From Perkinsus olseni (Eukaryota), in NCBI GenBank assembly GCA_013115125.1, contig JABANN010000355.1:1-35868 (forward strand): 35,868 bases of DNA. Direction: 5' to 3'. Below are positions 6,324 to 34,000 of the stretch, in pieces. Made by a program: the position numbers and the translations under genes. Within the stretch, counting starts at the first letter, position 1, and every line of letters starts with the position of its first letter. The notes beneath the pieces are model-generated. The model made no database searches, had not been told where the DNA came from, and saw only the letters and a program-made list of their open reading frames with translations.

Positions 6324-7937
6324 ATGACAGCTGTTGAGGACGACGAGGGTTCGCTGGGCGACTCTGAAGGAGAGGGCCCTCCGAGACCTCATAAATGCCC
6401 GCATTGTGGCAGCAGGTAGTAGCAGGGAATGGGTTATTTTTTTTTATTTTTCCGGAATTTTTTCATCGCTTTTGGGTGAATATCAGAGAGAGAATTAATA
6501 ATTACTTTCGCTGTAGCTACCTGGATTAATCGTCACTCGCCGCGAAACTCGCCTTTCTTATACGGCTGGACCCCCCTACAGTCGAGCGGGCACAAATTTC
6601 CCGGCACAAAATTTTAGTTGATCACCTCGCCCTTGCTGAGGATGCCAGAGGTCGTCTTCATTTTTCCTTCCGGCTGATTGGCATTCCTAAGATATACTCT
6701 TCATTCTGAGATTAGTAAACCCGTGAGGGTAGTCGTTGGTTCAGACATAGCTGCTGAGCGAGCGGTCGCTTTGGCATCATAGTCAGCCCGGGAGCGCTCC
6801 TGTAGAAGCATTCGTATAGCGATGGGATGTTACGATCAGCTTCCGAACCGTAAATACACTAGGCGTGAGTCGGAGCATATCAATGGCCTGTACGCGGAAG
6901 TGGTGTGGGAAATATCCGAGGTCGAACGTGGGAAGATACAGAAATTCTCTGGTAACCGACCATGATGGAGGCACCACACGATTCGCTCCCGGTATTTTTT
7001 TAGTTTCTTCGGAAGTACTTATTATTGATTTTATGCTACTTTTTCCTGTTCGATCGATATCGTCGATTCCGCGCTACTTTTCTGTACTCAACCCACGTCA
7101 CTCCCTCCCTACTACTTTCCCCTAGGCAATCGATTTTTGCCTCCGATGATACAAAAATATTTTCTCAGGTTCCTCAAGAAGGCTCATCTTGATCGTCACG
7201 TCTCCTCAGTCCACACCGACGATCGCCCCTACCAGTGCCTGATGTGTCCGAAAACTTTCAAGCGGGCAAGCCATCTGAAACGGCATGAGGAGAACGCTCA
7301 TTCTATTGAGAAGAATGAGATTTGCGAGAAATGTGGTAAGGCGTTTGGCGGGTCGGAGCAGCTGCGGCGCCATTTGAAGCGACATCGGGTAAAGGCTGCT
7401 CACGTATCGGATACGCTGTCCGTGGCGAGTATCATGTCAAGGAAGGCGGAGCTGGTGGTTGACAAGCGGATCGAGGAGCCTTCAAAGGAGCCCGAGCATC
7501 GCTGTGAGCAATGTGGGAAGAGTTTTTCTCGGTTAAGGGGTTTGCGATTGCACATGCGGTCGAAGCATCATCGGACGAGGGGTGGCGAGGTCGTGACGGA
7601 GCTGCCGTCCTTCCCGTGCCATCTATGTGGTTTGGAATTTTCTACGGGAAGTAACAGGAATGCTCATATGAGAGTGAAGCATCCAGGAGGGACGCCGACG
7701 CAATTCAAGTGCTCGAGATGCGGGTTCGAATCCCCCTACCGACATGTTGTTGTTCGACATGAAAAAAATGTTCATGACGGCGGCGGAGCGAAGCGACGGG
7801 TCGAAAAAGAGGATTCTCCTGTGGTGAAGAAAGCGTGTCGGTTTGATACGTTTGGGAGGATGAGCGGACCGAGCTCGTTATTTATGGCGAGGATTCCGAT
7901 TGGGGTGGGCAGCGGCAGCAGCGATAGCGACGTGTAG
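6324..7937 (+). CDS. C2H2 zinc-finger protein with six fingers; exons 6324-6415 and 7169-7937
   Basis: The splice joins HKCPHCGS|RFLKKAHLDRHVSSVH into a complete finger. It is followed by a TDDRPY linker and fingers CLMC, CEKC, CEQC, CHLC and CSRC, each with a His pair. Confidence 0.88.
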
Positions 7938-8100
7938 ATAGATTTTATTGGATTATGATAAGGGTAAAAGGGCTGTACTATTTACGTTTCTTTGCAACTG
8001 GGGTGAGAGTTTTTGGTTTTATCGGCGTATCTTAGGTTGAAGCTGGTTTGTTGTATGATAGTATCTTAGGTTAAAGCGTGTTAGATATGAATCCTGTCAG

Positions 8101-8144: not shown

Positions 8145-11100
8145 ATGGGGAAGGACTACTACAGGATCCTCGGTGTCGACAGAAATGCTGGACCTCAGGA
8201 AATAAAAAAAGCGTAATAATTTCGTGGCGCGCGGGAAATATTCAAACCCGACTCCACCGTAATAGTTTCGTGGCGCGTGAAATATGTATTCTTTTCAGAT
8301 ACCGAAAACAAGCTCTTCGGTGGCACCCTGATAAAAATCCTGACAACCGTGAAACTGCAGAACACAAATTCAGAGACGTAAGCGGAAAATTTCGCCCATT
8401 TATTGTAAAATTTTTTCTCATTCTCCCTGCATCTTACCGTACGTATCCTGCGGTAACCCCAATTTTTGGCGAAACTTTTGCAATTTTCTGAAAATTTCCC
8501 AGTTTGTTCGATATTTTTTCATCATTGTCAGATAGCAGAAGCATTCGACGTGTTAAGTGACACACAGAAGAAACAAATGTACTACCACGGAATTTAGCGG
8601 AGCGAAGCGCTTTTTGGTCACAATTTTAGGTCTCATATTTTATGAAAGGAACCCAGGCATTCGCGAGATTTAGTTTCTCTCATCTTTTCGGTTAAGTTTT
8701 GGCCAATTTTTTCGACCAGATTGGTGTGCTAATTTATAGTCGGGACGTTCAGTGGAATTTTTTCCGGCTTTTCCGTCGATTTTACGGTTTTTTCCCATCA
8801 GATATGACCAATTCGGAGAAGAAGGATTGAAGGATGGCGGTCCAGGTTGTGGATTCGGACCTGGCATGTAATCGTTCGTGAATAATTTACCCATTTCAGG
8901 GCGGTCGGATTCGGTCATCAGAGTAATTCGTTATCAAAAGGTGTCGATCAGAAATTTTGATTTTTTTCTCCTTTTTCCGTACAGAAAAAACCGGGAGTTT
9001 CTTACGTCCTTAAAATTTCGAGCGATGAATTAATTTGAAGGCAAAGACGGTTGAGGCGTGCAAAAATTTCGTGCTTTTTGTTGACCACGATGTGGATACT
9101 CGTGGTTGTAGTGTCAACCAAGTTGATTTCATTATGAGTTGGAAAGTAACTATTTGTTAATGATTGGTATTCGCAGTTTTCCTGATTAAATATTTTTATT
9201 AGGAGAACTGTTTCCTGTATTTTTTGTGGCAGGTTTGGCGGGCGAGGTGGCGGTTGCCACTACAGCTTCTCTCGCGATCCGAATGATATCTTCGCGCAGA
9301 TGTTTGGAGGAGGCTTTGGCGATGGTATGTTCATGAATGGCGGAATGGACGACTTCGGTGACTCCTTCTTTGGAGGTAATCGAAAGGTCGTGGGTTCGAT
9401 CCCGGGTAGGGAGGTTTTTTGGTATTTCTTCAGGAATGAATCGACGGAATGGCTTCGGGCGCTGCGCGTCTACTCGGGCTCCGAGTCCTGAGCCGAAACA
9501 AAGCCGTAAGCTCGAAATCGATTAACTGGCCGTTTCATTTCGAGAAAATTTCGCGTGCCACGAAATTGTATTGGCACTCAGGCATTGCGGAGTTCGATTT
9601 AAAGTGCTCTCTCGAGGAGCTGTACGGAGGCAAGACGAAACGGGTTAAGGTGAGTTTGCCCGCGGGAGGTACCGGGTTCGATCCCGGCATGTGTCGTTTT
9701 AATCAGATCAAGAGATCAAGCTGCACTGTTCAAAGGCCGTCCGAGACTACGTTAGAAATTGAAGTGAAGCCCGGCTGGAAAGCTGGTAGGAACTTTTCTG
9801 ACACCTCTAGCTTTCCGCGGTTCCGGTTATGTCTGTGTGAGATTTACCAGTTCAAACTTCGAAGAATATGGAAAAATCGATAATTCTGAGGAATGTCCAA
9901 TTTCATGCGAATAATCTTTCGATCTGTTTGAAGCCACGATCGACCTACGGGTTGACGAGAGGCCGTCACGCAATTGGGGGGGAGGGCTGCGAGGAGCCTA
10001 GCCAACAAATTTTGATCGGGGCTGGTTCGTGCCTGTAGATCGCAACCAGGGTAAACGTGGTAGATAATGGTATGATAGGAATTGGCTAATGGTAGACAGC
10101 TCAGGTAGCTCAATAGTAGCGCTCGCCCTGACACAACTCATAGTCTTGTGATATAACAACCACAGGGCCCGAGACGACAACTTAGTGTTGGAAGCTGTTG
10201 ATATTTGACCAGTTAGTATGTTTAAATCAATAATATACTCGCGGAAAAAATTTACGAACTTTTGGTAAAAATTGCAGAACAAGGTTGGACTGGAAATTCA
10301 AGCGTCGGGAGGGCTCGGACATGCTCATCCGTATTTTCCTATCCATGATAGTTTTGTACATGAAAGTACAGAAATTTCCGTTTTTTTTCGAGAAAATTTT
10401 TTTTGAGGGAATCTCGTAAACGCAAGCGTAATTTCCGAGGCTTCATCACAATGTACTGATCTGGTTATAAAGCCTCTAAAGGAATTAGCACATCGATGAG
10501 AGTCCAAGGCGGTCGGACTATCAAGCGCACGCGTGGATGGCGGAACACTTTCAAGTGAGATACGTTTTTTCAGGTACGAAAATCACTTTCGGTGGCGAAG
10601 GTGATGAGCTTGGGTGCACTGGACGGTGTCAAGATGTCGCCTTTGTCATACGCGAGAAGGGACATCCTCTGTTCGAGCGTTCTGGGTAATGATAGGGGAA
10701 AAAGGCTCAGCTTAATTATTCATGTGCGAGTTTCGCGGGAATTTTCGCGCAATCTTTTGTGTAAAAATCGAATTTTGTGTTTTTTTTGTTCGAGCGTTCT
10801 GGGTAAAGGGAGGGAGAGGCTAGCGTAAACTGAGAAATTTGCTCGAATTTTTATTCGATTTTCTCGGAAAATTCTGGAAAAGGAGAATCCTGAGAAGGGG
10901 ATGTTGTGGGGGAGAATGGTGTGATTTGGGGAATTTATGGTATTGGTGTATTTTTCCTGATTTCAGATCGGATTTGATTTACAAAAGAAAATTGACGCTG
11001 AAAGAAGCTCTCACAGGTTTCGGGATGGACGTACCGACTTTGGCTGGGGCGACCAGAAGGTAACGATTTAAGAAATGGGGAAATTATTCTGATATCGGGA

Positions 11101-11287
11101 AGATCTTTTTTGCAGATTGAACGTTGATCATATGGTTAAGCCCGGTAGCCGCGAGATTCTTTACGGTGCGGGGATGCCCATCTCGAAGGAGCCCGGAAAG
11201 TTCGGGAATCTTATCGTCACTTTTGACGTGGAATTTCCGGACAATCTGAGCAGAGCGCAGATGGAGGCGTTGAAGTGTCTTCTATGA
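8145..11287 (+). CDS. Class II (DNAJB/Sis1-like) Hsp40 co-chaperone, about 11 exons
   Basis: [11 protein letters not shown]...[15 protein letters not shown] (J domain, HPD motif), then a G/F-rich region, then C-terminal [31 protein letters not shown] and [23 protein letters not shown]. No CxxCxGxG zinc-finger region. Intron phases are consistent. Confidence 0.95.
9376..9433 (+). repeat. 58-nt intron made largely of a tRNA 3'-half-like element (DnaJ)
   Basis: GTAA TCGAA AGGTC GTGGG TTCGATC CC... Confidence 0.75.
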
Positions 11288-11529
11288 TGATGATGGTATT
11301 ATTAACGGGGAAGGTTGGGTATGTGCACGCGTGCTCATACCAACTTTTCCGTAAATTACGTCACTGAAAGCATCGTTGTCGTCGTCGTCTTACTCTTGTA
11401 TGTCCGATTAAGTGGCTTCAACAACCTGTACCAATTATATTCACTTTCGTCGCGAAATTATCAAATACTCAACCACTCTGTAAAATGACCTGTCGATTAG
11501 GATAATCTAAGCTCAGTAGAAATAACGAT

Positions 11530-31029: not shown

Positions 31030-34000
31030 ATGTTGTCAAAGATCGCCTACCCAACCGTCCGCCCAGCATTCTCCTTCGTGACTGCCACTTCCTCTCGAGT
31101 CCGAGCCTTCAGTGCTCCTGCTGACACCAAGGTGAGCGCATCTTCGGAAATCTTTCTGTCATACAGAATCACCGCAGTACCTTTACTTTGTCCTCCCGAG
31201 AGACGCACTCTCGCGTTTGTTTGAGACCGGCTGATTGATAACACCACCGCCAGGGATCCAATCCTTCATCTTCTTGCCTTCCGCCACTCAGCGTAGCTTC
31301 TTATCGGAGCAGGATAGGATCAGTGGAATATGCTCAGCACACTGCTCAGGTTGTTCTTCCTCGTGACTCCAATCAAGCTCTAGGGATCGGCAAGTTTGCT
31401 GTGGAATTCCTAGACGGCAAGGTGAGAACGCTATACCACACCTTCCGCTACTCCTAATCCCATCGAATCTTGTCAGATTGGCGGTGATATCGATCCGGCT
31501 GTCTACCGAAGAGTGGAGATGTTCCACACCGATTCAGTGAGTCTCGTTTCTCGATTTTCTCTCAATATGAGTTTTCAGGTTATGTGCGGCATCTCAGCGT
31601 TAGCCATGCACACTAACGCCCCGACTCTGCTGAGAAGTGAGGCCTTGGAAGAGTATAGGGATCCGTAGGTTGGGGTTGGCTCGTTGGGCACATGATCACG
31701 AGTATTTCGATATTTTTCCATTTTTGCGGTTTTTGAAGATGGAAAATGACGCAGATTTTTTCCCTTTTTTGAGTCCTTTGCTGTGATGGATAGCGCTGAT
31801 TTTTCCGGTTTCTTCTGTTTTTTTCGAGAAGGAAAGATTGGCGCCGTTCCCAATATCCGGTGCAGGATTTATGAGGGGGCGTTGTGTCGATCGTTGATGG
31901 CTAACATTCACCCGACCTTGCCGTCCGTAATTGCTGCAATGTTGTGGCGCAGTGACTTTCGTCTTCAGACGAGGTGCGAAAGTTTTTGGAAGCTCCGAAA
32001 AGGTAAAGGCTGAGAAGGCGATCGCCGCTAACTCTAGTGCTGCGAGGGAGTGGGATTCTAATGGTGGGAATTTCGTGGCGCGCGAAATGTCTCACTGCTT
32101 ATGTGTTAGGCACGGTGTTCGGCTACAACGCTTGTAATCCGAAGCACCAGGTAATCAGAAGGTCCTGGGTTCGATCCTCGGTAGTGCTGTTATTCTAGGC
32201 GGGAGAATTTGGCCATAATGACTTCTACCCAGTAGTAGTCGCTGCTGCTCAGAAGACGGGCGAGGTTGATGGCAAGAAAGCTCTGAATGCTATGATCCTA
32301 GTCGGTAAGTTGGCGGTAAGCGGTCTGCGCCCTCTTCACTCGTCGTCTCTCCTGTTCGTACGGTATGATTGGTATGATCATTACGATTAGAGTCATCATC
32401 GCTATCCGTTTTTCAACACAAAAGTCAAGTGTTGCTGTATCCTAGGGTTCCCAGTACTGTATTGCTTGGTAATTGTTAATTGAAGCCAGAGGAAACACAG
32501 AGCATGGTCACGCTATTTTTGTTTTGGCATCTTAAAGGCATCTGTCGGAGTTAAAACTCTCATTTGCGAAATCCCCCCTTTCAGATGAGATCCGCGGCCG
32601 TCTGTGTGAGGTGTTCTCATTGAAGACGTACAAAATCGACCACGTGGTAAGGCGGCCCTCATCGGGCTTCGATTGCTCTCAGAGTCGGACAGGTCCATGG
32701 TGCTGTCGCTTCGGCCGCGGTGTATGGCGCTTTGATGGGAGCCACTCCGGAACAGATTGAAGCGGCTATTGGTAGTGGTGGGGCATAGCTTCCTTTCTGA
32801 AAGTCAGAAAATAGTCCTTGGGGGTATTCGAACCCCGGCCTGTGTTAAGGTATGACCAATGATCTGACATCGCTATCGTCGTTCAGGAATGTTCGTCGTG
32901 CATTACATCCCGTGGAGGGGCATCAGAGCCGGGAAGCAGCTGTCTGACTCTAAAGGCGCTTCGGCGGCTATAAGTGAGTCCGCTAAGACTCTCATCACTC
33001 CGGTTCCCGCGGTTGATAGGTACCGAGGCTGCTATCCTGTGCATGCAGCGAGCGATGAACGGCTTCATGGGGCCTAGGTGAGCTCGCTTCGAATCATTTG
33101 TCGTTGAGCTGATTTTGAAATTGATGAATCATGATTCTGTGCTGGACTTGGTGGTGTGCTTTTTGCCAGGGATGTCTTCCGCAATCCCGAGGCGATTTTC
33201 CGCTACTTTGAGCCTCAACAGGATGGGCAGTGTCCCTTTGATATTGTAAGATGGGGGGATTTGAGAAAAGCCACTTGCCAGGATTGAACTGACGACCTTC
33301 TGCTTACGAAGCAGACGCTCTACCACTAAGCTAAAGTGGCTCTGGTTTAATATAGTGACTAGTTTGGTTCCTCCTCAGGAGCTTAGCCACAGCGGGGGCG
33401 ACTTCGCCGTGATGGGGATGCACTTTAAGCTTGGCCTGTATGAACATCAGAGCGCTGGTGCTCTCCAGGGAATGATCGACCTGCTCATGTGAGTCCACCG
33501 TCGATAATTCTGGGAGCCGCATGAGTGATGAAAGCATTGTCGCAGACCGGGTATTTTTACCCGTTCTTCAAATATCCGCTTCATAGCGGATTTTGCGTCG
33601 CTTCCGGGGTGGCACGCTCTTTATGAGGACCACGTCGAGAGCTCCCTGAGAAATCATAGGGCTCCTGGGGATTTTCGTTCTTCGATACTCAGCGTTTGAC
33701 ACTATGAACTCCGCGGGGGAGAATACTTCACACTGTTGACAGGGCGCCTCTTCTCACGCCGTTCAACTCGAGCATTTAAAATTCATCTTATGCTGCATTT
33801 TTACTAGTAACGTGCATAAGTTAGTGATGGAGGAATTGAAATGGGTTGATTGATATCGTTGCACGGTCGACCGATTTGTGGATGTCAGGAATAACCCGGA
33901 GCTGATGAGGGATCCGTCGAAGATCAGAAACATCAACGTCGTGGCGTAGGACACTATCGGCCGCTGCCGGCGTTCCCTCTTTCCTTCCAGATACGAGCCT

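Follow-up and report, generated by a model that had tools for sequence, protein, structure and literature searches.

A 17-bp word dispersed through gene bodies of Perkinsus olseni as a candidate docking site for a DNA-binding chromatin protein

We examined a recurrent 17-bp word that occurs nine times in a 35,868-nucleotide stretch of DNA from Perkinsus olseni, a parasite of shellfish (assembly GCA_013115125.1, contig JABANN010000355.1, positions 1 to 35,868; hereafter the window) and followed it through the genome. The word behaves as a sharp-edged 17-bp binding matrix, and it is probably a selected DNA docking site, located in gene bodies, for a putative sequence-specific DNA-binding chromatin protein.

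Abundance and form of the word

Genome counts were made in the 39.9-Mb assembly, in which the window is contig C2630, and were compared with the predictions of an order-4 Markov model, for which 433 kb served as training sequence. The exact 16-mer is present in 452 copies (224 forward, 228 reverse), against an expectation of approximately 0.05 and none for a reversed-pattern control. Its 11-mer core, AATTTCGTGGC, is present in 1,079 copies (expectation 40, control 7). A preliminary description of the window had allowed that a Markov background might explain the frequency of the word, which an excess of this size does not permit.

In 120 unique matches the word has the form of any base but A, then AATTTCGTGGCG, then a tail of CGCG with A or G, CGTGA, CAGTGA or AGTGA. 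Information is approximately zero outside positions -1 to +20, with a weak preference up to +20, and the word is not palindromic. The tails are discrete alternatives, and anchoring either half of the word recovers the other half. Exact 12-bp cores number 93 and those with a single mismatch 41, the changes falling at the outer edge of the core and at position 5. Since position 5 changed from C to T ten times and position 6 from G to A only once (p=0.012), these changes are not symmetric CpG decay. Such decay was rejected as the origin of the core mismatches, given this uneven tolerance and a genome with no CpG depletion (observed/expected ratio 0.9-1.0); judged from the sequences, the pattern looks like binding tolerance rather than decay. 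No helical or nucleosome phasing was found among the motif sites.

Distribution among introns, exons and intergenic DNA

Copies were assigned to compartments with a self-trained gene model built with the motifs masked. The model reproduced 10-11 of 14 seeding RNA joints and 9 of 14 independent joints exactly, so that the assignments are approximate. The 102 copies in 762 kb that were mostly picked for the word comprised 80 intronic, 10 coding and 12 intergenic; in 600 kb taken from other match lists, 39 copies comprised 24, 4 and 11, respectively. When pooled, these gene-model calls place approximately 74% of the 141 sampled copies in introns, 10% in coding sequence and 16% between genes. Thus the preliminary proposal of intronic protein-binding sites survives as to a protein-binding site, putative as the binding is, but not as to restriction to introns. 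Density peaks in short introns, many of them 43-55 nt long (48 copies per 100 kb in motif-selected and 12.8 in unselected sequence). Copies are spread evenly along genes with no 5' bias (20, 17, 23, 12 and 16 in successive quintiles of intron rank). The host genes have no common function, as 9 of 89 neighbouring exons had a Pfam match, all of them different.

Exons of at least 150 nt, 165 kb in total, contain seven copies, compared to 0.055 expected from synonymous resampling (maximum 2 in 200). Coding copies occupy several frames and both strands, about half being antisense, and six of the ten coding calls in the 762-kb set are in long open reading frames or RNA-confirmed exons, the other four being doubtful. 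The window's own coding copy (exact; 26149..26165, minus strand) is in the coding exon at approximately 26035-26232 of a PF12237 (PCIF1-type) gene. The preliminary description had left it as either coding or within an in-frame 45-nt intron; this intron is not supported, as two RNA runs cross the copy in one uninterrupted exon, and the protein stretch is colinear with its P. olseni and P. chesapeaki orthologues, with no indel. The sense strand reads PRATKL in P. olseni and SLATKL in P. chesapeaki. Since SLATKL is the peptide of the AGTGA variant, the comparison of peptides suggests that the site has been kept across species by variant switching. In a Sen1-like helicase, aligned with 40 homologues, the word encodes NFVARD in a loop equal in length to that of the closest of them; a homologue with 82% identity retains NFVARD. 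Both copies are placed in variable stretches of their proteins. With no indel in either alignment, the sequences indicate that these two coding copies arose by substitution and not by insertion.

The age of motif-bearing introns was compared in two families, DnaJ and ammonium transporters. Two copies lie in a DnaJ intron that splits the Ala codon of IKK-A-Y. When 42 J-domain loci and the window were searched with a strict pattern, five other J-domain genes (of the HPDKGG and HPDKN types) had an intron at the same phase-2 position; these introns are unrelated in sequence and lack the word. Therefore, the intron position predates the word at this locus, and the word did not create the intron. 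A literature search on the exon boundary of human DNAJB6 yielded nothing usable, and we claim no age across kingdoms for this intron. A search for paralogues of BolA recovered only the BolA gene itself.

Domains, proposed mode of action and candidate readers

The density of the word is patchy. Contig C2668 has no copies in 100 kb despite 203 predicted short introns and C2813 has none in 50 kb, whereas C715 has 4 per 10 kb. Over 134 bins of 10 kb, density rises with sister words (rho 0.50), with A/T words (0.44) and with long introns (0.35), and is uncorrelated with the number of short introns (rho 0.02) or the coding fraction. A4/T4 runs with a 10-bp period are found in the long introns of motif-rich contigs (the window, C715, C320 and others), at 5.2 times the mean power. 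A motif-poor contig carries tandem transporter and dioxygenase families, and 14 of its 30 long exons have a Pfam match.

Among the accompanying words are B-box or tRNA 3'-half words, which number 110 in the 762 kb, have the same compartment profile as the 17-mer and occur in both orientations in the window's introns (e.g. at 9393, 9675, 13343, 18084, 18578 and 25817). The longer sister words are intron-enriched and co-vary with the 17-mer; in the window they are GCGGAGCGAAGC at 8597 and 19314, TATCTTAGGTT at 8028 and 8062, and AATCTTCGCTGTGCGC at 11798, 16811, 18288 and 30948.

We propose that sites would arise by point substitution in existing sequence, in introns first because introns are cheap, and in tolerant protein loops where exons are long. 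They would then multiply through local tandem duplication and be held by purifying selection in populations. The bound protein would dock in transcribed genes in either orientation; as the left half of the site is fixed and the right half accommodates a 1-bp insertion, the protein is probably two-headed, a suggestion on which we place little weight. Binding may help to keep genes in long-intron domains open and transcribed, in the manner of TFIIIC-bound extra TFIIIC (ETC) sites and the periodic An/Tn clusters (PATCs) of nematodes. Such an anti-silencing or domain-opening role is suggested by the company of B-boxes, periodic A/T tracts and long introns, and by analogy we regard it as a tentative possibility. 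More speculative, and doubtful as it stands, is that a gene-body vocabulary (the 17-mer, B-boxes, GCGGAGCGAAGC, GTATCTTAGGTYGA, AATCTTCGCTGTGCG and periodic A/T tracts) would license the transcription of domains through dedicated chromatin proteins, without promoter-centred control, with enough force to rewrite the protein where introns are scarce. If true, it would be a gene-body licensing code in a lineage sister to the dinoflagellates, a group with unexplained transcriptional control.

Perkinsids have trans-spliced runs of same-strand genes and few recognisable transcription factors, and how the DNA to be transcribed is chosen is an open question in them as in dinoflagellates. With its high information content and approximately a thousand sites, the word can serve as bait for its putative factor, which makes this question directly testable. 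Profile searches of the genome gave no match to E2F_TDP (PF02319) or KilA-N, a weak negative because the search was made exon by exon and introns can hide a domain. CG-1 likewise had no match, the control genomes also being silent, and HTH_Tnp_Tc5 (PF03221) had none, again a weak negative in an intron-rich genome. As lower bounds, there were seven AP2 domain matches on two contigs and 11 C2H2 matches. AP2 domains have been reported in P. marinus and, among apicomplexans, E2F in Cryptosporidium alone (PMC4117751). The core of the word contains GGCGC, which is the 5GC motif of SMAD MH1 domains (PMC5727232).

The strongest multi-finger match in the genome is a six-finger C2H2 protein encoded in the window itself (6324-7937, plus strand) and conserved in P. 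chesapeaki. Its first fingers are putatively TFIIIA-like. It was rejected as the reader, since by the zinc-finger recognition code the helices predict G-runs and not the word. The spacing of the CENP-B box is TTCG-N7-CG, and this class of site was likewise rejected, given the lack of matches to PF03221, the profile for a reader with a CENP-B/pogo-type HTH, and copies that are dispersed in genes rather than in centromeric arrays.

Several points weigh against a selected docking site. The sense strand carries 71 of 104 intronic copies (68%, p=2e-4), a bias that is not required of a purely DNA-level site. A motif-bearing intron in one ammonium-transporter gene is absent from three paralogues, which are intronless at that position, and could therefore be a gain. 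The doubtful share of the coding calls (4/10) and the ascertainment bias of the tandem-array comparison given below belong here as well, as do a gene model that tends to call intergenic DNA intron and the choice of 11 of the 23 sampled contigs, along with the window, for containing the word. Finally, no reader was found among E2F_TDP, KilA-N, CG-1 and HTH_Tnp_Tc5.

Alternative explanations

All 16 pairs of neighbouring copies less than 100 bp apart have the same orientation; beyond 300 bp, orientation becomes random. This pattern suggests local tandem duplication. Five arrays have the word in their repeat unit (from 347 arrays of any period; a sixth was not counted). In these the word deviates from consensus at 9 of 340 positions, compared to 46 of 371 in the remaining unit (p=8e-7), a divergence approximately 4.6-fold lower, and with full units only it deviates at 7 of 255 (p=8e-6); all of these figures carry an ascertainment bias. 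No allelic or paralogous copies of motif-rich regions were found for a conservation test. The co-oriented pairs and the arrays would also suit molecular drive, in which a repair, recombination or DNA-modification protein biases conversion or copying toward the word with no benefit to the host gene. Drive would still call for a protein that reads the DNA, but its sites would have no regulatory effect on the host gene. The use of several frames and both strands, the unrelated functions of the genes and the placement in variable protein stretches are likewise the pattern of uptake sequences (PMC2817400). However, the gene-dense stretches without the word (C2668 and C2813) and its co-variation with B-boxes and other unrelated words speak against drive, and we consider it unlikely. 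Perkinsus is not known to have a DNA uptake system.

The preliminary description had also suggested the conserved core of a tiny mobile element, and in a related explanation a small element or introner family made or invaded these introns, and the word is what survives of its core. The concentration in short introns would fit such an origin, as would the ammonium-transporter intron that three paralogues lack. Two tandem arrays on different contigs also have 21-25 nt in common around one variant; they are the exception among 175 sites, which otherwise showed neither an element body nor flanks that align in register from locus to locus. The extended flank homology that, by the preliminary description, would make the word a conventional repeat is thus not seen. 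The same 175 sites have no target-site duplications or direct repeats at their boundaries (the best 4-mer duplication was 6/175 over 221 offset pairs). Tail-to-tail pairs within 30 bp are absent genome-wide; opposite-orientation pairs less than 100 bp apart are absent among 172 sites, convergent pairs not having been searched genome-wide. In short introns the distance from the donor to the word varies from 8 to 25 nt. Together with the indel-free coding copies and a DnaJ intron position common to motif-free paralogues, these results argue against the mobile core. A neutral relic whose core has diverged by approximately 3% would presumably retain homologous flanks, and we regard a mobile origin as quite unlikely.

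An element read in RNA by a pre-mRNA-binding or splicing factor would explain the excess of sense copies in introns. The AATT head comes immediately after the donor GT in approximately 3 of 52 sense copies. The CAGTGA variant, beside another recurrent word (window 9791-9812), is present in a transcript contig of depth 2653 that originates elsewhere (joint 9812>16284), and thus the word also reaches abundant RNA. However, antisense copies make up 33 of 104 in introns and about half of those in coding sequence, both orientations of a non-palindromic word show the same mix of variants, and some copies are intergenic. There is no fixed position relative to either splice site. Therefore, the preliminary view of a DNA-level rather than a splicing signal is supported, and a reader of RNA is very unlikely.

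A resemblance to E2F sites had also been noted at first. The E2F consensus is TTTSSCGC. The reverse strand of the word has CACGAAA and sometimes TTTCGCGC, which correspond to the Swi4/6 cell-cycle box and the E2F consensus, respectively. However, the core TTTCGTGGCG differs from the consensus, and the GCGCGAAA tail is present in only 8 of 120 copies; with no E2F_TDP match, weak as that negative is, and no 5' bias, the E2F link is not supported. Copies even along genes and hosts with unrelated functions do not fit promoter-proximal placement at cell-cycle genes. As for a tRNA A-box, TCGTGGCGC matches the start of tRNA-Arg(CCG), with only 9 nt in common in a comparison with 30 tRNA loci. Neither the AATT head nor the tails occur in the tRNAs of these 30 loci, in five signal recognition particle (SRP) RNA loci or in U2, and the small nuclear RNA (snRNA) and SRP RNA promoters examined lack the word. 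B-boxes are abundant in the same introns, 23 lying within 300 bp of 69 sites; only one of these is downstream on the same strand, and none of the 69 sites has one 30-90 bp downstream on that strand. The A-box reading therefore fails on both sequence and geometry, and TFIIIC binds the A-box weakly, by shape (PMC12409998). A promoter-type factor site (E2F/DP or SBF-like) or a stand-alone A-box for TFIIIC, which the lack of a KilA-N match and of a functional theme among the hosts also disfavours, is thus highly improbable and largely refuted.

Copies and neighbouring features in the window

The window was searched with up to three mismatches, and chance was estimated from 100 shuffles. Nine copies were found, against a shuffle mean of 0.26, and none of the 100 shuffles reached nine. 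All nine copies listed in the preliminary description are therefore present, but four are variants, for which its starts were off by 2-4 bases. The search placed exact copies at 8218+, 19029+, 26150-, 30028- and 32069+, and variants at 8264+ (2 mismatches), 9552- (1), 15431+ (2) and 16289- (3). Eight of the nine are intronic, as first reported: the introns of six copies are confirmed by spliced transcript contigs, and those of the other two (16270-16318 and 32064-32109), absent from the listed RNA joints, are assigned from GT..AG ends and reading frames.

The DnaJ gene holds three copies. The exact copy at 8218..8234 (plus) is in intron 1 (8213-8298; RNA joint 8212>8299) and forms the first unit of a diverged 46-bp tandem duplication; the same intron holds the variant at 8264..8280 (plus; A1>G, with a GCGTGA tail). 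The third, at 9551..9567 (antisense, minus), is a variant at position 11 (G>A) in the intron at 9506-9581 (joint 9505>9582). A variant with a GATCTC head at 15431..15447 (plus) is in the intron at 15427-15503 (joint 15426>15504) of a small-GTPase gene with a weak P-loop GTPase Pfam match, which we take to be Rag-like from the preliminary description and its motifs. The GCAGTGA-tail variant at 16287..16304 (antisense, minus) is in the 49-nt intron predicted at 16270-16318 from its GT..AG ends and frame continuity. The remaining exact copies are at 19029..19045 (plus), in the intron at 19011-19188 of an RFC-subunit gene (joint 19010>19189 in four of four RNA runs); at 30027..30043 (antisense, minus), in the 48-nt intron at 30006-30053 of a dCMP deaminase gene (skipped in four of four RNA runs); and at 32069..32085 (plus), in the 46-nt intron at 32064-32109 predicted for a prpD-like gene by the gene model and frames. 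The labels RFC-subunit and prpD-like are those of the preliminary description.

The exons of the window match P. olseni proteins at 96% identity and P. chesapeaki proteins at 69-72%. Transcript runs, compared with the window for strain polymorphism, match it nearly letter for letter, and at gene starts a tail resembling a spliced leader, TCTTGGCTCA, is present on the transcript contigs. In the RFC gene the last exons are tandemly duplicated (19637-21655 and 22336-24410, 76-93% identity), and the spliced contigs use the first copy. A MITE-like (miniature inverted-repeat transposable element) sequence at 25061-25241 has 58-nt imperfect inverted arms beginning TACAGGGTG, with a partial second copy at 22291-22334. 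An intact tRNA-Thr(CGT) at 33268-33341 (minus) is antisense in an intron of the prpD-like gene, and an Rfam scan of the window found tRNA only. Elsewhere in the genome, CATACCAC followed by A or T is upstream of U2 and of all five SRP RNA genes examined and is a candidate snRNA-type promoter element.

Viral contigs gave seven single, scattered matches to the word. In metagenome contigs, among which there was no DNA from other Perkinsus species, a tandem pattern was found in 92 stretches. These are mostly GC-rich dyads of the REP (repetitive extragenic palindromic) type, AATTTCGTGGC-N3..6-GCCACGAAATT, that adjoin unrelated bacterial genes; they have an 11-bp half in common with the word and a Perkinsus-type tail at one locus. 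We treat this resemblance as coincidence.

Comparison with known systems

The literature search, which covered freely available papers, found no description of the word, and matches to TTTCGTGGCG were in unrelated papers. PMC9399869 concerns spliced leaders only. The word is a candidate for a dispersed intragenic docking motif.

Among systems with which it may be compared, ETC sites are B-boxes outside Pol III genes that have barrier and insulator roles (PMC12409998). The likeness is in dispersed long docking motifs, and here B-boxes are present in the same introns and domains. However, the word is neither a B-box nor paired with one; it lies inside gene bodies, codons included, and is a candidate for docking only. 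The PATCs of C. elegans (PMC4947018; bioRxiv 10.64898/2026.08.08.743475) are likewise intronic DNA-level marks of long-intron genes, and 10-bp A/T runs are present here as well, but PATCs act mechanically over extended stretches rather than as words bound by a protein.

The introners of Amoebophrya (PMC7789003), a related alveolate, are also repeated sequences in short introns. They have terminal inverted and direct repeats and similarity over the whole intron, whereas none of these was seen for the word, which is exonic as well. The m1 and m2 motifs of CERP2/CELE2 MITEs, bound by HIM-17 (PMC9757741), are similar in being long, present in thousands of copies, under purifying selection and read by a lineage-specific factor. 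However, those motifs are paired in MITE inverted repeats at promoters, and the word is unpaired, with no element body and no 5' bias.

The uptake sequences of Haemophilus and Neisseria (PMC2817400) are nearly identical words repeated hundreds to thousands of times on either strand; within coding sequence they use several frames, fall on poorly conserved residues and show little relation to what the genes do. The word has the same use of several coding frames and tolerant residues without indels (checked in two proteins). In contrast to those sequences, it belongs to a eukaryote, is mostly intronic, is limited to some domains and lacks close inverted pairs. It also provides a clear example, in a eukaryote, of protein sequence being shaped by a signal that is not itself coding.

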